Positions 3,029 to 18,175 of a stretch of 18,175 bases of DNA are shown in pieces. Source of the DNA: a virus (lineage: Duplodnaviria > Heunggongvirae > Uroviricota > Caudoviricetes); IMG/VR virus record IMGVR_UViG_2547132279_000005; one strand, written 5' to 3'. The notes beneath the pieces are model-generated. The model worked only from the letters and a program-made list of their open reading frames with translations. It ran no database searches and had not been told where the DNA came from. The translations under genes and the position numbers were made by a program. Positions within the stretch are counted from its first letter, which is position 1; every line of letters starts with the position of its first letter.

Positions 3029-3936
3029 ATGCCCGCCGTTGACCTTTCCCAGTTACCGGAACCCGCCATCATCGCGGAGCCTGACTTTGAAGCAATTCTG
3101 GCTGACACAAAAGCCATGATGATTGCGTCCTATCCCGCCGAACAGCGTGAAGCCGTTTCCGCCGCACTGGAGCTGGAATCGGAACCCCTTAACGTTATCG
3201 CTCAAACCATGTCGTTTCGTGAAATGCTGTTACGCCAGCGGGTCAATGAGGGTGCACGCGCCTGCATGTTAAGCCACAGCGCCGGGACAAACCTGGACAA
3301 CCTCGCAGGCAATATGAACACAAAGCGCCTGGTTATCACTCCGGCAACGGATACCACCGACGCAGTGATGGAAAGTGACACCTCGCTGAGACTGCGGGCG
3401 CAACGGGCGTATGACGGTCTGAGTGTTGCTGGCCCGTCAGGTGCATACGAGTATTTTGCACGCAGCGCCAGCGGTCTGGTACGCGACGCGCGGGCCATCA
3501 GTCCGTCTCCGGCAAATGTGACGGTTTCCATCCTGTCCACTGACTGTCCACTGAAGGCGACGGCACAGCAACGGAGGCGTTGCTTAATACCGTTCGCGCC
3601 GTTCTGAATGCAGAGGATACCCGCCCGGTGGCCGACCGCCTGACCGTACAGAGTGCCAGAATCGTGACATGGCGGCTGAATGCAAAACTGTACTTTTACC
3701 CCGGCCCGGAATCCGAACCTATTCTGGCCGCGGCTGAATCGTCGTTCAGGAAGTGGCTGGCTGAGCAGGGGCTTATCGGTCAGGACGTGGCGTTGTCCGC
3801 CATTGCTGCCGCACTGCATGTGCACGGTGTGCAACGCGTGGAGATAATCGAACCCACACAGAATATGGCCATCAGCGACATACAGGCGGCGCGCTGTGAG
3901 TCGTTCACCATCAGCGAAGGTGGGCGCAATGAGTAA
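3029..3936 (+). pseudogene. J: Baseplate protein gpJ, disrupted by an 11-bp tandem duplication causing a frameshift
   Basis: The J homologue is split between ORF 3029..3607 and ORF 3580..3936. CTGTCCACTGA occurs twice in perfect tandem at 3533-3543 and 3544-3554. Deleting one copy restores a single 299-codon frame reading ...VTVSILSTEGDGTATEALLNTVRAVLNAEDTRPVADRLTVQ..., colinear with P2 gpJ (...VTISVLS...VRPVADRVTVQ...). Confidence 0.85.
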
Positions 3937-4461: not shown

Positions 4462-6756
4462 ATGAGTACCACAACACGAAAATTTAAAACCGTTATCACC
4501 GATACAGGTGCCAAAAAATTAGCTCAGGCAGCCGCGCCAGATGGTAAGCCTGTTCGCCTGACTCATATGGCCGTGGGCGACGGTGGCGGCACGTTGCCCA
4601 CACCAGACAGTAAGCAGACCCGTCTGGTGCATGAGGTGTGGCGACACACAGTTAATCGCGTCATCCTGGACGCAACACATCAGAACCGCATTATTGCGGA
4701 GCTGGTTATTCCTCCTGAAACGGGCGGATTCTGGATCCGGGAAATTGGTGTATTTGATGAGCACGGCGATTTAATCGCGGTGGGCAATACTGCCGAAAGT
4801 TACAAGCCAGCCGTTGCTGAAGGGTCCGGTCGTGCACAAACATTTCGCACCATTCTGACCGTATCCAGCACGGCCACCGTGGCGCTTACCGTGGATAACA
4901 CCATGGTGATGGCCACAGTGGATTACGTGGATGACAAACTGAAAGAGCATGAACAGTCACGACGTCACCCGGACGCCTCGCTGACCGCAAAAGGCTTTGT
5001 TCAACTCAGTAGCGCCACTAACAGCGTGTCTGAAACGCAGGCTGCAACGCCGAAAGCGGTTAAGGCCGCATATGACCTGGCTAACGGAAAATATACCGCT
5101 CAGGACGCCACGACGGCACGAAAAGGCCTTGTCCAGCTCAGTAGCGCCACCAACAGCACGTCTGAAACGCAGGCTGCAACGCCGAAAGCAGTAAAGGCCG
5201 CGTATGACCTTGCTAACGCAAAATATACCGCTCAGGACGCCACGACGGCACAAAAAGGGATAGTCCAGCTCAGTAGTGCCACCAACAGCACGTCTGAAAC
5301 ACTGGCCGCGACATCGAAAGCGGTTAAGGCGGTAATGGATGAAACGAACAAGAAAGCGCCCTTAAACAGTCCTGCGCTGACCGGAACGCCAACAACACCA
5401 ACTGCGCGACAGGGAACGAATAATACCCAAATCGCAAGCACGGCTTTCGTTATGGCTGCGATTGCCGCCCTTGTAGATTCGTCACCTGACGCACTGAATA
5501 CGCTGAACGAGTTAGCGGCGGCGCTGGGAAACGACCCGAATTTTGCGACCACCATGACTAACGCGCTTGCGGGTAAGCAACCGAAAGATGCCACCCTGAC
5601 GGCGCTGGCCGGGCTTGCTACTGCGGCAGACAAGTTTCCGTATTTTACGGGGAATGATGTCGCCAGCCTGGCAACCCTGACAAAAGTCGGGCGGGATATT
5701 CTTGCGAAATCGACCGTTGCTGCCGTTATCGAATACCTCGGTTTACAGGAAACGGTAAACAGGGCTGGTAACGCCGTGCAAAAAAATGGCGATACCTTGT
5801 CCGGTGGGCTTACTTTTGAAAACGACTCAATCCTTGCCTGGATTCGAAATACTGACTGGGCAAAGATTGGTTTTAAAAATGATGCCGATAGCGATACTGA
5901 TTCATACATGTGGTTTGAAACAGGCGACAACGGCAATGAATATTTCAAATGGAGAAGCAAACAAAGCACCACAACAAAAGACCTGATGAATCTTAAATGG
6001 GATGCTTTGTCTGTTCTTGTTAAAGCCCTTTTCAGCAGTGAAGTAAAAATATCGACAGTCAATGCACTGAGGATATTTAATTCATCTTTTGGTGCCATTT
6101 TTCGCCGTTCTGAAGAATGCCTGCATATCATCCCTACACGAGAGAATGAGGGGGAAAATGGCGATATAGGGCCGCTACGCCCCTTTACGCTTAATCTCAG
6201 AACTGGTCGCATAAATATGGGGCATGGTCTGGATGTTACAGGAGATATAACAACTAACGCATGGGTGTACGCAAACCGCCTTGCAATTAACAGCAGTACA
6301 GGCATGTGGATTCATATGCGTGACCAGAATGTTATTTTTGGACGTAATGCGGTATCCACTGATGGTGCTCAGGCTTTGCTCCGTCAGGACCATGCCGACC
6401 GCAAATTTATGATTGGCGGTCTGGGAAATAAGCAATTTGGCATCTACATGATTAATAACTCAAGGACAGCCAATGGCACCGATGGTCAGGCGTACATGGA
6501 CAATAACGGTAACTGGCTTTGCGGTGCGCAAATTATTCCCGGAAATTATGGCAATTTTGACTCACGCTATGTGAGAGATGTCCGACTTGGCACACGTGTT
6601 GTTCGATTGATGGCGCGTGGAGGGCGTTATGAAATAGCCGGACACGCACTTACCGGATTAAGGATTATTGGTGAAGTTGATGGCGATGATGAAGCTATCT
6701 TCAGGCCGATACAAAAATACATCAATGGCATATGGTATAACGTCGCACAGGTGTAA
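4462..6756 (+). CDS. H: Tail fibre protein gpH (constant N-terminal part fused to the currently expressed variable C-terminal segment)
   Basis: 764 aa. The N-terminus (MSTTTRKFKTVITDTGAKKLAQAA) and overall architecture are gpH-like, with 44-aa tandem repeats. The gix-like crossover site lies in frame at codons VIEYLGLQE (5725-5751). The C-terminus ends ...RPIQKYINGIWYN.., the same motif as the alternative cassette. Confidence 0.9.
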   Translation: MSTTTRKFKTVITDTGAKKLAQAAAPDGKPVRLTHMAVGDGGGTLPTPDSKQTRLVHEVWRHTVNRVILDATHQNRIIAELVIPPETGGFWIREIGVFDEHGDLIAVGNTAESYKPAVAEGSGRAQTFRTILTVSSTATVALTVDNTMVMATVDYVDDKLKEHEQSRRHPDASLTAKGFVQLSSATNSVSETQAATPKAVKAAYDLANGKYTAQDATTARKGLVQLSSATNSTSETQAATPKAVKAAYDLANAKYTAQDATTAQKGIVQLSSATNSTSETLAATSKAVKAVMDETNKKAPLNSPALTGTPTTPTARQGTNNTQIASTAFVMAAIAALVDSSPDALNTLNELAAALGNDPNFATTMTNALAGKQPKDATLTALAGLATAADKFPYFTGNDVASLATLTKVGRDILAKSTVAAVIEYLGLQETVNRAGNAVQKNGDTLSGGLTFENDSILAWIRNTDWAKIGFKNDADSDTDSYMWFETGDNGNEYFKWRSKQSTTTKDLMNLKWDALSVLVKALFSSEVKISTVNALRIFNSSFGAIFRRSEECLHIIPTRENEGENGDIGPLRPFTLNLRTGRINMGHGLDVTGDITTNAWVYANRLAINSSTGMWIHMRDQNVIFGRNAVSTDGAQALLRQDHADRKFMIGGLGNKQFGIYMINNSRTANGTDGQAYMDNNGNWLCGAQIIPGNYGNFDSRYVRDVRLGTRVVRLMARGGRYEIAGHALTGLRIIGEVDGDDEAIFRPIQKYINGIWYNVAQV
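4989..5340 (+). repeat. About three tandem copies of a 132-bp (44-aa) coding repeat inside H
   Basis: Units begin near 4989, 5121 and 5252 and encode KG(F/L/I)VQLSSATNS(V/T)SETQAATPKAVKAAYDLAN(G/A)KYTAQDATTA(R/Q); the third copy is diverged. Confidence 0.85.
5726..5751. promoter_or_regulatory. Left gix/hix-like invertase crossover site, inside H
   Basis: TTATCGAATACCTCGGTTTACAGGAA matches the reverse complement of the site at 8797-8822 at 24 of 26 positions, and has the two-half-site layout around a central dinucleotide seen in Gin/Hin/Cin sites. Confidence 0.85.
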
Positions 6757-6759
6757 ATT

Positions 6760-7287
6760 ATGCAGCATTTAAAAAATATTAAGTCTGGAAATCCAAAAAC
6801 AAAAGAACAATATCAGCTAACAAAGAATTTTGATGTTATCTGGTTATGGTCCGAAGACGGAAAAAACTGGTATGAGGAAGTGAAAAACTTTCAGCCAGAC
6901 ACAATAAAGATTGTTTACGATGCAAATAATATTATTGTCGCCATCACCAAAGATGCCTCCACGCTTAACCCTGAAGGTTATAGCGTCGTTGAGGTTCCTG
7001 ATATTACAGCTAATCGTCGTGCTGATGATTCCGGTAAGTGGATATTTAAGGACGGAGCTGTGGTTAAACGGATTTATACGGCAGACGAGCAACAACAACA
7101 GGCCGAATCACAAAAGGCCGCGTTACTTTCCGAAGCAGAAAACGTTATTCAGCCACTGGAACGCGCTGTCAGGCTGAATATGGCGACGGATGAGGAACGC
7201 GCACGACTGGAGTCATGGGAACGCTATAGTGTTCTGGTCAGCCGTGTGGATACGGCAAATCCTGAATGGCCACAAAAGCCTGAATAA
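6760..7287 (+). CDS. G: Tail fibre assembly chaperone (P2 gpG / Mu U / Tfa family), paired with the current fibre C-terminus
   Basis: 175 aa, immediately downstream of H. The N-terminus [24 protein letters not shown] is paralogous to the minus-strand gene at 7316..7849. Confidence 0.85.
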
Positions 7288-7292
7288 AAATT

Positions 7293-7312
7293 AAGGCCCG
7301 ATAGCGGGCCTT
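7293..7312. terminator. Bidirectional hairpin terminator between the convergent tfa genes
   Basis: AAGGCCCG-ATAG-CGGGCCTT stem-loop, flanked by an A-run upstream and a T-rich tract downstream, between the stops of the two convergent chaperone genes. Confidence 0.6.
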
Positions 7313-7315
7313 GTT

Positions 7316-7849
7316 TCATTCTGGTTGTTCTGGAAACGTTACTGGCAGGCTGTAGGTGTCTGTGGATTCGACCTTCTGCGCATAGAGCATCCACTCGGTT
7401 AATTTTTGTTTATTCTCGTCGGAAATGATACCCAGCCGTAGCTGTGAGTCCCATAGCTGGGTTTTATCCCTGACAAGTTGCAACAGGCTTTGCTTTTCAT
7501 TCTCTGCCTGCTGCCTCTGTTCCTCCTCGGTATAAGTTCGCTTTATCACTACGCCATCTTTGAACATCCATTTACCCGAAATATCAGCCCGGCGATTTGC
7601 TGTAATATCAGGTAATTCAACGACGCTTGCGCCTTCTGGATTAATTGCTGAAACATCCTTTTCAATACAAATAATAACGCCGTTACGGTCATAGACCATT
7701 TTCAACGTATCAGGCTGAAAGTTCTTTTGTTCCTCATACCAGTTTTTTCCATCATCTGAATAAAGCCATTTGATGTTAAATTGTTTCGTTAGCTGGTATT
7801 GCTCTTTTGTTTTAGGGTTGCCAGCAGTAATGTTTTTTAAGTGCATCAT
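7316..7849 (-). CDS. Alternative tail fibre assembly chaperone (Tfa'/U'-like)
   Basis: 177 aa. N-terminus [24 protein letters not shown] and central [10 protein letters not shown] are paralogous to the plus-strand tfa. Lies immediately downstream of the alternative fibre segment. Confidence 0.85.
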   Translation of the reverse strand: MMHLKNITAGNPKTKEQYQLTKQFNIKWLYSDDGKNWYEEQKNFQPDTLKMVYDRNGVIICIEKDVSAINPEGASVVELPDITANRRADISGKWMFKDGVVIKRTYTEEEQRQQAENEKQSLLQLVRDKTQLWDSQLRLGIISDENKQKLTEWMLYAQKVESTDTYSLPVTFPEQPE

Positions 7850-7851
7850 AA

Positions 7852-8796
7852 TTAAATACTCCCCGCGTTATACCACCTTCCATTAATGCAATACTGAATT
7901 GGCCTTGCCTGAGTTGTATCAATTAATTCATCACGGTTTCCGTTAACTGAACCCGTAACGACATAACCTGACCTGTCAGACCAGCCGGGACCATTCCATG
8001 TCTGAACAGATGACAGACCGCCCAGGCGAATACCTGTAATAAACCTTGAGTTACATTCTGCCTGCGTATATGCACCAACATCCCCCGCAGAGGGTTTGCG
8101 GGTTGTGGTGTAAAACTCTGACCAGTTAGCTTCAAAGCCATAACCATCACGCGCTGAACGATAAAAGATACCGCCGTTTTTATAATTCACGCGGAACTGT
8201 ACAGCAGGGCAACTCCCCGCATTCATATTAAAGTGGAGGATTAATGTCGATGCGCCACTGATATCTGCATCATAAACGCCGCTATTCCAGTTCCAGCCAA
8301 CAGCTTTATCATTTGCAACCCTGCTTCCTGTTTGCCCTAAAGCAAATGCAGGCTGCTGGTTTTTCGTGTTGTAGTCTCGTCGCCAGCCAGGAGCATAAGC
8401 ATCACCATGATTAATATAGGTGAATTGAGCGTTAGTAATTCCGCCACCGCTGGATGTACTCGGCGTAGTAACGCGTATGGTCATTGCGCCGCGAGTGCCA
8501 ATAACTTCCACCACAGCACCTGCAAGACAAATATTTCCGCAACCTGTATCTGTAATGACCTTATTGTTTGCATAAGCCCATGAGCCTTTGCACATCCAGT
8601 AAGGATGGTTAAATGCCCCCTGACTCTCCAGCCACGAAATGAATTGTGCGGTTGTCCAGGTCTGACTATCGCCACCAATATTCAGCCATGCGCTATATGC
8701 GCGGCAGGCACCAATATTTTTGGTGAAGGTATCTTTTCCTGGAATATCTGCGCCGTTCTGTTTTTTCTGTAATGCACCAGAAGCCTGATTTACCGT
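7852..8796 (-). CDS. Promoterless alternative tail-fibre C-terminal segment (Hv'), expressed only after inversion fuses it to the constant part of H
   Basis: The minus-strand frame is open from the right crossover site (8797-8822) to the stop at 7852. Reading across the site gives ...QETVNQASGALQKKQNGADIP...MCKGSWAYANNKV..., in frame with H codons ...VIEYLGLQE. It ends ...RPIQYCINGRWYN.., like the current C-terminus. Confidence 0.8.
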   Translation of the reverse strand, partial: TVNQASGALQKKQNGADIPGKDTFTKNIGACRAYSAWLNIGGDSQTWTTAQFISWLESQGAFNHPYWMCKGSWAYANNKVITDTGCGNICLAGAVVEVIGTRGAMTIRVTTPSTSSGGGITNAQFTYINHGDAYAPGWRRDYNTKNQQPAFALGQTGSRVANDKAVGWNWNSGVYDADISGASTLILHFNMNAGSCPAVQFRVNYKNGGIFYRSARDGYGFEANWSEFYTTTRKPSAGDVGAYTQAECNSRFITGIRLGGLSSVQTWNGPGWSDRSGYVVTGSVNGNRDELIDTTQARPIQYCINGRWYNAGSI

Positions 8797-8822
8797 TTCC
8801 TGTAAACCGAGGTTTTAGATAA
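8797..8822. promoter_or_regulatory. Right gix/hix-like invertase crossover site
   Basis: TTCCTGTAAACCGAGGTTTTAGATAA closely matches the remembered Mu/P1 gix-cix sequence (TTCCTGTAAACCGAGGTTTTGGATAA). It lies about 55 bp upstream of the invertase start, as in Mu. Confidence 0.85.
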
Positions 8823-8876
8823 TGGCCGTTTCTGGCCTGCATGGCATGATTTGCGCTTTTGGACGGGAGATTCAGT

Positions 8877-9464
8877 GTGCTGATTGGCTATGTAAGGGTA
8901 TCAACAAATGACCAGAATACAGACCTGCAACGAAACGCTCTTGTTTGTGCAGGATGTGAACAGATATTTGAAGATAAATTAAGCGGGACAAAGACAGACC
9001 GACCGGGATTAAAACGCGCTTTAAAGCGCCTTCAAAAAGGTGACACGCTGGTTGTCTGGAAACTGGATCGCCTCGGGCGAAGCATGAAACATCTGATTTC
9101 TCTCGTCGGGGAACTACGGGAGCGAGGGATTAATTTTCGCAGTCTGACCGACAGCATAGATACATCTTCTCCAATGGGGCGTTTTTTCTTCCACGTGATG
9201 GGGGCCCTGGCTGAAATGGAACGTGAATTAATTGTTGAACGTACACTGGCCGGACTGGCGGCAGCGCGCGCACGGGGGCGCACAGGCGGACGTCGACCGA
9301 AGCTGACAAAAGAACAGCATGAGCAAATAGCAAGGCTGATTAAAAACGGTCACGACAGAAAACAACTGGCAATAATTTACGGCATTGGTATATCGACGAT
9401 TTATCGTTACCACCCCGCAGGAGAACCAAGCGGAACAATTGAGAAGAGTCAGGAAACAAAATAA
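8877..9464 (+). CDS. Site-specific DNA invertase, serine recombinase of the Hin/Gin/Cin/Pin family
   Basis: LIGYVRVSTNDQNTDLQRNAL...GDTLVVWKLDRLGRSMKHL...MGRFFFHVMGALAEMERELIVERTLAGLAAARARGRTGGRRPKLT is near-identical in pattern to Hin/Gin, including the catalytic serine in VRVST. GTG 8877 is preferred as the start; the ORF track begins at TTG 8859. Confidence 0.9.
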   Translation: MLIGYVRVSTNDQNTDLQRNALVCAGCEQIFEDKLSGTKTDRPGLKRALKRLQKGDTLVVWKLDRLGRSMKHLISLVGELRERGINFRSLTDSIDTSSPMGRFFFHVMGALAEMERELIVERTLAGLAAARARGRTGGRRPKLTKEQHEQIARLIKNGHDRKQLAIIYGIGISTIYRYHPAGEPSGTIEKSQETK

Positions 9465-16384: not shown

Positions 16385-16645
16385 ATGTTCCGTTGTCCGC
16401 TTTGTGGCGCATCTGCCCGTATCCGCACCAGTCGTCCGGAAAATGATTCAAACACCGTGCGGCAAAAGTATTACCAGTGTAACAACCTGGAATGCGGCGT
16501 ATGCTTCTCAACACTGGAAGCCTTCCATAAATTCACATCGAAACACGCCTCCGGCGTTCACTCATCAGAAGGTATTCCGTGGCATGAGCTGCCAGCTTCA
16601 CACAGGGGAAACAATCAGATGAGTTTGCCTTTACCTCAGAATTAA
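16385..16645 (+). CDS. ogr: Ogr/Delta-family zinc-finger late transcription activator
   Basis: MFRCPLCGASARIRTSRPENDSNTVRQKYYQCNNLEC has the same CxxC...CxxxxC layout and ARTSR motif as P2 Ogr (MFHCPLCQHAAHARTSR...YHQCQNVNC). Preceded by an AGGGAGG Shine-Dalgarno sequence. Confidence 0.85.
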   Translation: MFRCPLCGASARIRTSRPENDSNTVRQKYYQCNNLECGVCFSTLEAFHKFTSKHASGVHSSEGIPWHELPASHRGNNQMSLPLPQN

Positions 16646-16718
16646 CAGGCAGAATTGCCGGAGTAACAAAAAAGCGATAGATTACGCGCGGGTGCCTTTC
16701 GGCTGATGGTCGGAGGGA

Positions 16719-16916
16719 ATGCCCGAAGGCCAGATGTGGAAAGGCCCCGGAAAACATCTCTGTTTAACCGAGGCCCTAACCGTCTACCTAGCAAGTGATA
16801 GGTTAGCGCCTCCCCGAAAAAGGAGCAAGCGCTATGTCGCAAAAATCGCTTACAGCCATCACGTTCTGTGTGACGGCAATCCTCATCATCTGGATGCTGC
16901 ACGGCTCGCTGTGTGA
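16719..16916 (+). CDS. mok-like overlapping reading frame upstream of and overlapping the hok-like gene
   Basis: A 65-codon ORF begins 115 nt upstream of the hok-like start and overlaps it in another frame, as mok does in hok/sok loci. There is no independent sequence support. Confidence 0.35.
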   Translation: MPEGQMWKGPGKHLCLTEALTVYLASDRLAPPRKRSKRYVAKIAYSHHVLCDGNPHHLDAARLAV

Positions 16917-16974
16917 AATACGGATGAACTTCTGGGGAGCGGAGTTTGCGGCGTTCTTACAGTGTAAACAGTAA
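16834..16974 (+). CDS. Hok/Gef-family type I toxin (small membrane protein)
   Basis: The 46-aa product MSQKSLTAITFCVTAILIIWMLHGSLCEIRMNFWGAEFAAFLQCKQ has an N-terminal transmembrane segment and the family motifs SLCE(I/L)R and AAFL.CK (compare Hok RKSLCEIR; HokA ...WMIRDSLCEL...ELAAFLACK). SD is AAGGAG. A 9-bp-stem hairpin at 16984-17007 lies just downstream. Confidence 0.75.
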   Translation: MSQKSLTAITFCVTAILIIWMLHGSLCEIRMNFWGAEFAAFLQCKQ

Positions 16975-17064
16975 GGAAACCGCGACGGGGGAAGAGATTC
17001 CCCCGTCAATCGGTTGCCAGGGTAAGGTCGATAAGGCACCCTATCTCACAGACATGAACAACAA

Positions 17065-17098
17065 ACCCGCAGCGTAAAAACTGCGGGTTTTCTTTTTG
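17065..17098 (+). terminator. Rho-independent terminator downstream of the hok-like gene
   Basis: ACCCGCAG-CGTAAAAA-CTGCGGGT stem-loop followed by TTTCTTTTTG. Confidence 0.75.
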
Positions 17099-17144
17099 CT
17101 ACCCTCACAAATGAGGGCACCATACATAAGCAATAGGCATAACA

Positions 17145-17182
17145 GATCGATGCAATAAATCCGATCGATAAAAACGATCGAT
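17145..17182. promoter_or_regulatory. Cluster of three GATCGAT motifs (Dam GATC sites) in the com-like promoter region
   Basis: GATC at 17145-17148, 17163-17166 and 17176-17179, each within GATCGAT, spaced 18 and 13 bp apart, 45-80 bp upstream of the com-like start. Confidence 0.6.
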
Positions 17183-17226
17183 TTGTTATCATATCGGCAG
17201 CAGTAACCACACAAGAGGTGCCGCAA

Positions 17227-17424
17227 ATGACGCAAAATGTACGATGCAAAAATTGCAACAAACTACTTGCCCGCGCCTCATTTCACTACATTGAAATAAA
17301 ATGTCCGCGCTGCAAAACACTTAACCAGATAACGAGAGCCATCGAGCACCCCACACACATGAGGAGTTATGACCGTGGGGATCGCAATCCAGCACCAACC
17401 AGCACATACACCGGAACACACTAA
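17227..17424 (+). CDS. com: Com-like zinc-finger translational regulator (Mu Com homologue)
   Basis: MTQNVRCKNCNKLLARASFHYIEIKCPRCK matches Mu Com (MKSIRCKNCNKLLFKADSFDHIEIRCPRCK), with four Cys in a CxxC...CxxC layout. SD AAGAGG lies 9 nt upstream of ATG 17227. The 3' end overlaps the methyltransferase start. Confidence 0.85.
   Translation: MTQNVRCKNCNKLLARASFHYIEIKCPRCKTLNQITRAIEHPTHMRSYDRGDRNPAPTSTYTGTH
17349..17380 (+). promoter_or_regulatory. RNA hairpin enclosing the methyltransferase Shine-Dalgarno sequence and start codons (candidate Com target)
   Basis: CCCCAC (17349-17354) and GTGGGG (17375-17380) are exactly complementary. They flank GAGGAG (17361-17366) and ATG 17369, and the in-frame GTG 17375 is part of the 3' arm. 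Confidence 0.45.
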
Positions 17425-18175
17425 GGTTTATCAGACTGACAATGCCACGCTCTGTCGTGGGAATGCGCTGGAAATATTGCCGCTGATTGAGCCAGAAAGC
17501 ATTGATGCCTTAATCACTGACCCGCCTTACAGTTCGGGTGCGACACACAAGGCCGGACGCACCAACCAGGGCAGCCATGCAAAATATCTGAACGGCGAGA
17601 ACCTTCACCGCTTTGATGGGTTCGCGGGTGAAAACATGGACGCCCGTTCGTGGGCTTACTGGACACAATTATGGATGGCACAGGCACACCGCGCAGTCAG
17701 GCCGGGCGGTTATGCCCTGGTATTTACTGACTGGCGACAACTACCAGCTTTAACCGATGCGTTTCAGGCCAGTGGCTTTACATGGCGCGGCATCATTGCG
17801 TGGAACAAGGGGAGGGGGTCACGAACACCACATACCGGGTATTTCCGGCATCAGTGCGAATACATCGTCTGGGGCAGCAAAGGCCATTTAGATAAATCGC
17901 CTTCGGGACCGTTCGACGGCTGCATGACGTTCCCGGTTATCCCGTCAAAGAAAATGCACCCGACCGGAAAACCAGAAGAACTAATGGCGGAACTGGTCAG
18001 GACTGTGAATAGTGGCGGAACAGTCCTCGATCCTTTTATGGGGTCAGGGACAACGGGTGTGGCTGCACTGAAAGCAGGGCGAAAATTTATTGGTATAGAA
18101 ACCAGTGATCATTATTTTGAGGTAGCAGCGCAGAGGCTTCGGGGGACTATTACCACAACCATTTCGGCTACATAA
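17369..18175 (+). CDS. DNA methyltransferase, beta-class amino-methyltransferase (probable N6-adenine), com-linked
   Basis: Motif IV DPPY (ITDPPYSS) precedes motif I FxGxG (LDPFMGSGTTG), with HPTGKP between, the motif order of beta-class N6/N4 methyltransferases. The start overlaps the com 3' end; ATG 17369 or GTG 17375. The stop TAA is at 18173-18175. Confidence 0.85.
   Translation: MTVGIAIQHQPAHTPEHTKVYQTDNATLCRGNALEILPLIEPESIDALITDPPYSSGATHKAGRTNQGSHAKYLNGENLHRFDGFAGENMDARSWAYWTQLWMAQAHRAVRPGGYALVFTDWRQLPALTDAFQASGFTWRGIIAWNKGRGSRTPHTGYFRHQCEYIVWGSKGHLDKSPSGPFDGCMTFPVIPSKKMHPTGKPEELMAELVRTVNSGGTVLDPFMGSGTTGVAALKAGRKFIGIETSDHYFEVAAQRLRGTITTTISAT

Follow-up and report, generated by a model that had tools for sequence, protein, structure and literature searches.

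The viral DNA analysed here, an 18,175 nt stretch referred to below as the window (IMG/VR record IMGVR_UViG_2547132279_000005, Caudoviricetes), ends with a com gene that overlaps a gene for a beta-class DNA methyltransferase. Judged from its sequence, the control region of this pair is homologous to the com-mom control region of phage Mu, and not merely similar to it. We propose that translation of the methyltransferase, from a start buried in an RNA hairpin, is activated by Com, downstream of a Dam/OxyR-type site, a reading to which we assign a probability of about 70%. The exchange of mom for a methyltransferase gene behind com is already known and common in phages; the cassette extends this published theme and overturns nothing. 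The features of the region are as follows:

17142–17178, no strand assigned: candidate OxyR-type binding site with three Dam sites (GATC at 17145–17148, 17163–17166 and 17176–17179)
17165–17192, + strand: candidate sigma-70 promoter, −35 TCGATA, 16-nt spacer, extended −10 TGtTATCAT at 17184–17192
17227–17424, + strand: com, 65 amino acids, CxxC...CxxC zinc ribbon, Shine-Dalgarno sequence GAGG at 17215–17218
17334–17350, + strand: predicted Com recognition site on the mRNA, GAGAGCCAUCGAGCACC, read as GAG-AG-CC-AUC-GAG-CA-CC, core CC-N3-GAG at 17339–17346
17349–17380, + strand: predicted translation-inhibition hairpin, enclosing the Shine-Dalgarno sequence GAGGAG (17361–17366), AUG 17369 and GUG 17375
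17375–18175, + strand: beta-class DNA methyltransferase, 266 amino acids from GUG 17375 (268 from AUG 17369), stop codon ending at the end of the window

The open reading frame (ORF) of com matched the Pfam family PF10122 (Zn_ribbon_Com) with an E-value of 9.5e-12 and 44.6 bits (cut-off 22.9), and PHROG 13819 ('gpCom control of modification') with an E-value of 2e-17. Over 42 amino acids of the zinc ribbon the protein shares 60% of its residues with Mu Com, with all four Cys residues aligned; the spacing is CxxC-N(15-16)-CxxC, and the zinc-ribbon residues are conserved among relatives. The com ORF runs through the entire hairpin and overlaps the methyltransferase ORF by 56 nt if counted from AUG 17369, or by 50 nt from GUG 17375. 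This is in agreement with an initial annotation, made from the sequence alone, that had reported a Mu Com homologue overlapping a methyltransferase by about 56 nt. By analogy, Com would be a translational activator of the downstream gene that acts in trans, as Mu Com reportedly does on mom translation. A Com homologue nearer to the window's Com (65% over 53 amino acids) than Mu Com is was seen in the Shiga toxin (Stx)-converting phages LC727881 and LC727895 (H101/H102), in a region annotated as a Mu-like phage inserted within the Stx phages.

The methyltransferase matched PF01555 (N6_N4_Mtase) with an E-value of 2.7e-33 and 116.2 bits (cut-off 26.7), while the same Pfam scan gave no match of this protein to PF02086, the D12/Dam-like fold. 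DPPY (motif IV, 17519–17530) precedes FMGSG (motif I, 18035–18049), which is the beta-class order and bears out the class given in the initial annotation (beta-class, DPPY/FxGxG). DPPY, HPTGKP and FMGSG are invariant or nearly so across 25 relatives, and the ratio of non-synonymous to synonymous substitutions (dN/dS) of 0.08–0.17 against five close variants demonstrates purifying selection. The closest solved structures are small beta-class adenine methyltransferases, of the M1.HpyAVI/DpnA type, and CcrM. The DPPY motif favours N6-adenine, and Bpm of Bordetella phage BPP-1, a relative with 53% identity, carries the annotation adenine methylase; the target base of the enzyme is probably N6-adenine. 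We rejected membership in the M.EcoGII family, which had been raised as a possibility, since the similarity to the M.EcoGII-like enzyme of phage 1720a-02 (352 amino acids), a homologue that the M.EcoGII paper mentions by name, is at the level of motifs only, with 33% identity over 67 amino acids and 22% over 129 amino acids, around the catalytic and S-adenosylmethionine (AdoMet) motifs. M.EcoGII and M.EcoGI (PMC5778455) are, like the window's enzyme, beta-class, prophage-borne and from E. coli, but they have 349–352 amino acids, compared to 266–268. The M.EcoGII homologue of 1720a-02 lies between the Q antiterminator and stx2A genes, and com is not noted with M.EcoGII or M.EcoGI.

Translation of the methyltransferase probably starts at GUG 17375 rather than at AUG 17369. 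The GUG is favoured because it follows GAGGAG at a distance of 8 nt, compared to 2 nt for the AUG, because the Salmonella homologue lacks the AUG but retains the GUG, because the main NCBI cluster (P0001) has 266 amino acids, and because the equivalent GUG is where mom starts in Mu (PMC6483171). For the Salmonella homologue (L164, 1896–1940) the annotated start is ATT 1938, and the conserved hairpin contains an in-frame GUG (1896) that follows AGGAG at a distance of 8 nt; the start of this gene is probably mis-annotated.

We aligned the Mu com-mom region with the window, element by element. Both contain a GATC triad with 18/13 spacing in an OxyR-type site, a com gene encoding a zinc ribbon and overlapping its payload gene, a Com target motif and an adjacent hairpin, which carries the Shine-Dalgarno sequence in its loop and the GUG start in its 3′ arm, and the homology reaches up to GUG-GG. 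As it ends two codons into the payload gene, the recombination joint can be located there, and the control region therefore moves as a cassette. Behind this joint the window has an AdoMet methyltransferase (PF01555), whereas Mu has Mom. The two phages also differ in that the window's phage is P2-like and has Ogr, while Mu has C, and in the promoter: a candidate promoter lies inside the GATC region of the window, while Mu has a weak C-dependent promoter with poor −35 and −10 elements, a 19-bp spacer and a T-tract. The control had initially been described as Mu-like, which holds for the GATC triad, com, the Com motif and the start-codon hairpin, all of them homologous, but not for the C-dependent promoter segment, which is absent.

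How far this arrangement has spread was assessed by an alignment search of viral contigs for Com. It returned 498 relatives, of which the best 80 were kept, and the ORF overlapping the 3′ end of com was classified. Such an ORF was identified in 76 of the 80 loci, so that the overlap of com with a modification gene is common to them, and the following counts refer to these 76. The payloads comprised 29 beta-class PF01555 methyltransferases, 23 Mom proteins and 24 others; 17 of the 20 'other' payloads scanned against Pfam were alpha-class D12 methyltransferases. Among the beta-class payloads, 21 are near-identical to that of the window, and the other 8 make up a divergent group (220–233 bits in phmmer, compared to about 600). 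We rejected the converse idea that this methyltransferase family always goes together with Com, since Com was found upstream in 6 of 79 genomic loci of the family. One relative is located between the holin and lysozyme genes of a Mu-like Salmonella prophage.

Com homologues in front of methyltransferases instead of Mom have been described for FluMu, Pnm1, an island in H. influenzae biogroup aegyptius and B3, and Com-dependent silencing was proposed (PMC3299994). In Hia5, Hin1523 and Nme1821, which belong to Mu-like prophages (PMC3299994), and in B3 ORF47/48, the mom position is taken by a methyltransferase with a Com homologue directly upstream, as in the window. The Hia5, Hin1523 and Nme1821 enzymes are alpha-class (D12/Dam-like, PF02086), whereas the window's enzyme is beta-class and resides in a P2-like prophage; for the Hia5 type a near non-specific activity was measured (PMC3299994). 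The same two families in the same order and with the same overlap are found within the Peduoviridae in KS5, a P2-like Burkholderia phage in which a "Com translational regulator" (gp21/gp20 pair) overlaps an N4/N6 methylase (PMC3091744), in Smp131 (gp05/gp04) and in Escherichia phage Chuche. The DNA of Chuche is 95% identical and is annotated as gpCom plus DNA methyltransferase, while the KS5 and Smp131 pairs lie inside late structural operons and their methyltransferases are 40–46% identical to that of the window. RefSeq labels the pair "Com family ..." and "DNA-methyltransferase". The novelty implied by the initial annotation is not upheld, as com plus methyltransferase has been published (PMC3299994) and P2-like phages already carry it in their annotation (PMC3091744). 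We found no paper in the literature that analyses regulation or specificity of the E. coli P2-type com-methyltransferase cassette, our searches brought up no regulatory study of the KS5, Smp131 or Chuche pairs, and a paper on the ST131 methylome does not cover the enzyme.

Mu Com recognizes CC(N)2-3GAG within the loop of a hairpin, and in vitro selection (SELEX, systematic evolution of ligands through exponential enrichment) yielded the bipartite form NGAGNNCC(N)2-3GAGNNCCNN (PMC6483171). Positions 17334–17350 of the window fit this bipartite motif exactly and align with the Mu target GAAUGCCUGCGAGCAUCCC (PMC6483171). The motif is kept exactly in lineages whose synonymous sites are saturated. 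In com loci 44% of the CC-N(2-3)-GAG occurrences are in a covarying 4-bp hairpin, compared to 8% for the same motif elsewhere in these loci, and the stems covary across 60+ distinct com loci regardless of the payload (AUGC/GCAU, ACGC/GCGU, GCAC/GUGC, GGGC/GCCU and others).

The predicted Com site is located directly 5′ of the hairpin, and one nucleotide is common to the site and the 5′ arm of the hairpin. The outer stem is formed by CCCCAC (17349–17354) and GUGGGG (17375–17380), which are separated by 20 nt including GAGGAG, and the inner stem by CAUGA and UUAUG. Folding of the isolated 40 nt gave −14.3 kcal/mol with z = −2.67, and 4 of 200 shuffled sequences reached an equal or better value; for a longer region of 121 nt z was −0.9, which is uninformative. 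The hairpin around the Shine-Dalgarno sequence and the start codons, proposed initially from the CCCCAC/GTGGGG repeat, is thus predicted by folding, and its stem is conserved: in the copies from Y. kristensenii and Salmonella none of the 12 stem nucleotides differs, although the loop has diverged and the synonymous sites of the methyltransferase are saturated. The translation-inhibition structure of Mu is UCCCAC-GGAGAAACAUU-GUGGGA with the mom GUG in the 3′ arm (PMC6483171). Compared to Mu, the outermost pair shows a compensatory C-G/U-A change, and the window has the longer and more stable hairpin (−14.3 kcal/mol for 40 nt versus −12.1 kcal/mol for a 51-nt segment of Mu that includes the Com hairpin). 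Among 19 distinct variants of the element, gathered across all loci, a 5′ C always occurs together with a 3′ G, and a 5′ U with a 3′ A; in the hairpin of one locus (L151) a C-to-U change leaves a G-U pair. Rfam contains no family that matches the Com site or the hairpin; its single match is described below together with the hok gene.

Upstream of com, the three GATC sites noted initially are present at 17145, 17163 and 17176. For scoring of this region we used ATAGnTnnnAnCTAT-N7-ATAGnTnnnAnCTAT, which we take to be the OxyR consensus. The triad region reached 15/20, the best score in the 18-kb window; Mu Pmom and agn43, which are experimentally established sites and served as controls, scored 13/20 and 14/20. 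When the window was simulated with a Markov-1 model, a triple of GATC sites within 35 nt arose in about 20% of the simulations, so that clustering alone is weak and not significant, while the exact 18/13 spacing, identical to that of Mu Pmom, occurred in 0.03%. The pattern GATCGA-N12-GATCG-N8-GATCGAT was found at 55 sites among 2.9 million viral contigs, and at 48 of these a com gene follows directly downstream. Another three of the 55 lie directly upstream of alpha-class methyltransferase ORFs without com, which suggests that a Dam/OxyR-type site is usable without the Com layer. These 18/13 triads are at about 1510–1620 of L180 (reverse strand), at 3515–3630 of L181 and in L191, and the methyltransferases are Dam-like with a PWxGGK motif. 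A similar arrangement is present in agn43 (flu), where three GATCs in an OxyR site overlap the initiation region, which is occluded by OxyR, and GATC-II and GATC-III are 13 nt apart (CGATCG-N7-CGATCGAT). The spacing of GATC-I and GATC-II is 19 nt in agn43 versus 18 nt in the window, agn43 controls an autotransporter with no Com layer, and the likeness to the window is one of sequence geometry only.

GATC-II of the window falls in the candidate −35 region and GATC-III in the spacer. The extended −10 matches at 5 of 6 positions, is near-consensus, and is the only promoter-like match in 16600–17500. It is kept as TGaTATCAT in Y. kristensenii, as TtgTATAAT in Salmonella, and none of the 21 near-identical viral copies has lost it, even where the GATCs are gone. 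In Mu an activator-dependent promoter follows downstream of the OxyR site (PMC3378877). In the window GATC-III and the shared TAACCACAC (ACCACA) are 30 nt apart, and this interval holds the extended −10 instead of the Mu segment. A match to the Ogr-type late promoter, with TGT-N12-ACA as what we take to be its consensus, was found once in the window, inside com; more than one is expected by chance and the phage's own late promoters do not fit this consensus either, which makes it a weak test. The tightly gated, late expression claimed in the initial annotation is not borne out, since a near-consensus extended −10 stands in place of the C-dependent segment. From its promoter sequence, the cassette may be expressed in lysogens.

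The mechanistic reading is well supported by homology and conservation: each element is homologous and conserved, the catalytic motifs are intact and the methyltransferase is under purifying selection. We infer Com binding, hairpin opening, OxyR/Dam control and the timing of expression as follows. A single mRNA would start downstream of the extended −10 (17184–17192), and OxyR would block its transcription when the three GATCs are unmethylated or hemimethylated, as in Mu and agn43. Com would be translated freely from this mRNA, while the ribosome-binding site and the GUG start of the methyltransferase would be locked in the hairpin 17349–17380. Binding of Com to the CC-AUC-GAG motif would then open or remodel the hairpin and permit initiation at GUG 17375, as suggested by the homology with Mu. 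The methyltransferase would mark the phage DNA, and unavoidably host DNA as well, and the progeny would be protected from restriction in the next host.

Several observations weigh against this reading. The methyltransferase family occurs without Com in 73 of the 79 genomic loci, and also in BPP-1, where the gene is downstream of cro; because the family mostly occurs without Com, the enzyme is not inherently dependent on the Com gate. The stem of the Com motif pairs at only 3 of 4 positions in the window's lineage, with an internal A-A, A-C or C-A mismatch. This is the sole respect in which the window's Com site is atypical, and the imperfect stem may lead to a binding geometry that differs from Mu. 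EHPT, a run of conserved residues in Com, is encoded by the same nucleotides as the 5′ arm of the hairpin, and protein coding could contribute to its conservation. Regarding the upstream site, 3 of the 21 near-identical viral copies have no GATC, as a result of a deletion of about 31 bp between GATCGAT repeats plus mutation, and in one of the 21 GATC-II is mutated to GAAC. Since triad-less copies exist, Dam/OxyR control is dispensable. The window lacks an equivalent of the roughly 40 bp in which Mu has its T-tract, its −10 TAAGAT and its C-dependent start site; because this promoter segment is absent, no sequence ties transcription to the late phase. Com alone would give no timing either, because com is co-transcribed with its target. 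The triad-less copies are of the L085 type among L083–L103, a single GATC is retained in L005 (2297–2330), and the −10 is present in all of them.

The promoter also allows a different view, in which the cassette would be switched in lysogens: a constitutive extended −10 under an agn43-like OxyR site would be heritably ON when methylated and OFF when OxyR is bound to the unmethylated site. Some of the cells would then have an additional methylation pattern, for bet-hedging or lysogenic conversion and not for the late lytic phase, and Com could still gate translation. The conservation of the near-consensus TGtTATCAT in relatives fits this view, as do the GATC-II/III geometry, which is identical to agn43, an OxyR consensus score one point above that of agn43, and the position of GATC sites over the −35 and the spacer, not upstream as in Mu. 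Neither an activator site nor a Mu C-dependent promoter was found, and the cassette forms an independent unit at the end of the prophage, preceded by its own terminator, a setting typical for lysogenic-conversion cargo. We nevertheless consider such a switch unlikely, as the triad is shared with Mu, which is not phase variable in this sense, copies without GATCs persist, and the remaining Com payloads that are known (Mom, Hia5-type) act late and are toxic (PMC3299994, PMC3378877).

The overlap of the two genes suggests that ribosomes on com might unwind the hairpin and alone enable initiation on the methyltransferase, with no need for Com in trans. Since com ends at 17424, it spans the whole hairpin and the 50–56 nt shared with the methyltransferase ORF, and the imperfect Com-binding stem of the window's lineage is consistent with this. 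The same overlap is found in Mu, yet according to the title of Wulczyn et al. 1989 (cited in PMC3299994 and PMC3378877) mom translation is positively regulated by the com product. Moreover, the exact SELEX motif is kept despite saturated synonymous sites, indicating selection for protein binding, and the zinc-ribbon residues are conserved, so that translational coupling by itself is an improbable explanation. It is hardly credible that the cassette is a decaying remnant, inactive cargo carried along by the prophage. Truncated methyltransferase ORFs in 2 of the 21 near-identical viral copies (L085, L099) and the loss of GATCs in some copies would fit decay, but dN/dS of 0.08–0.17, catalytic motifs invariant across 25 relatives, and an intact cassette in 170 complete E. 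coli genomes and an isolated phage argue against it. Com-activated translation from the buried start remains the reading that we prefer.

The window represents the right arm of a P2-like (Peduoviridae) prophage, as initially assumed: genes for the tail fibre, tail-fibre assembly, gpU, the tape measure, the tail sheath, gpD and Ogr are present. Within this P2-like E. coli prophage the com-methyltransferase region forms a self-contained cargo cassette, placed at the ogr-attachment-site end. Downstream of ogr follow a hok/gef toxin gene (16834–16974), a strong terminator and the com cassette:

17063–17090, + strand: intrinsic terminator, 10-bp stem followed by a T-run, which closes the hok unit and forms the left edge of the cassette

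The cassette is the final gene pair before the attachment site, and in one example raiA adjoins. It was found in 170 of 5426 complete E. coli genomes (about 3%) and in the isolated phage Chuche. About 960 further E. coli genomes match the flank alone (window 17000 to roughly 17100–17122), without com-methyltransferase, and the cassette is therefore optional cargo.

The hok/gef ORF matched PF01848, and the region 16690–16974 has a sub-threshold match to sok RNA (RF01794, 44 bits versus a gathering score of 59). The trio of hok, com and methyltransferase is also present in Y. kristensenii (L163) and in phage Chuche. At the left edge of the cassette an inverted repeat, CCCTCA-caaa-TGAGGG, is located at 17103–17118; it occurs in L004 and L005 but not in Chuche or L163, and may represent the scar of a recombination event or a site of protein binding. 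Further upstream, the layout at 4462–9464 resembles the Mu G segment, with a tail fibre gene (+ strand), two opposed tail-fibre assembly genes (6760–7287 on the + strand and 7316–7849 on the − strand), an ORF for an alternative fibre C-terminus (7852–8595, − strand) and a serine invertase gene (8859–9464, Resolvase plus HTH_7). This is probably an invertible host-range segment. Between 9500 and 16342 the tail genes U, T, FII and FI are on the − strand and D and ogr on the + strand, an arrangement that differs from what we take to be the P2 gene order. Because phage Chuche shares this layout, it is a feature of the lineage and not an assembly artefact.

Our data show that the Mu com control region, comprising the Dam/OxyR site, com, the Com site, the start-codon hairpin and the first two codons, travels as a unit. 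The unrelated enzymes onto which it was grafted number at least three, namely Mom and the alpha-class and beta-class methyltransferases. The only surprising reading is that of an agn43-like phase switch in lysogens. We think it rather improbable that P2-like prophages have rewired the Mu cassette in this way, with loss of the C-dependent promoter and with a strong extended −10 placed inside the OxyR/GATC triad as an agn43-style epigenetic switch. If true, Dam methylation would decide in each cell whether a second methyltransferase is made in lysogens, which would constitute a prophage-borne, methylation-controlled methylation switch, a 'phasevarion' without repeat slippage. The rewiring of the promoter leads to a testable hypothesis of Dam/OxyR-controlled heterogeneity. 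Activity of the cassette in about 3% of complete E. coli genomes would affect both the reading of methylomes and the passage of P2-like phages across restriction barriers.

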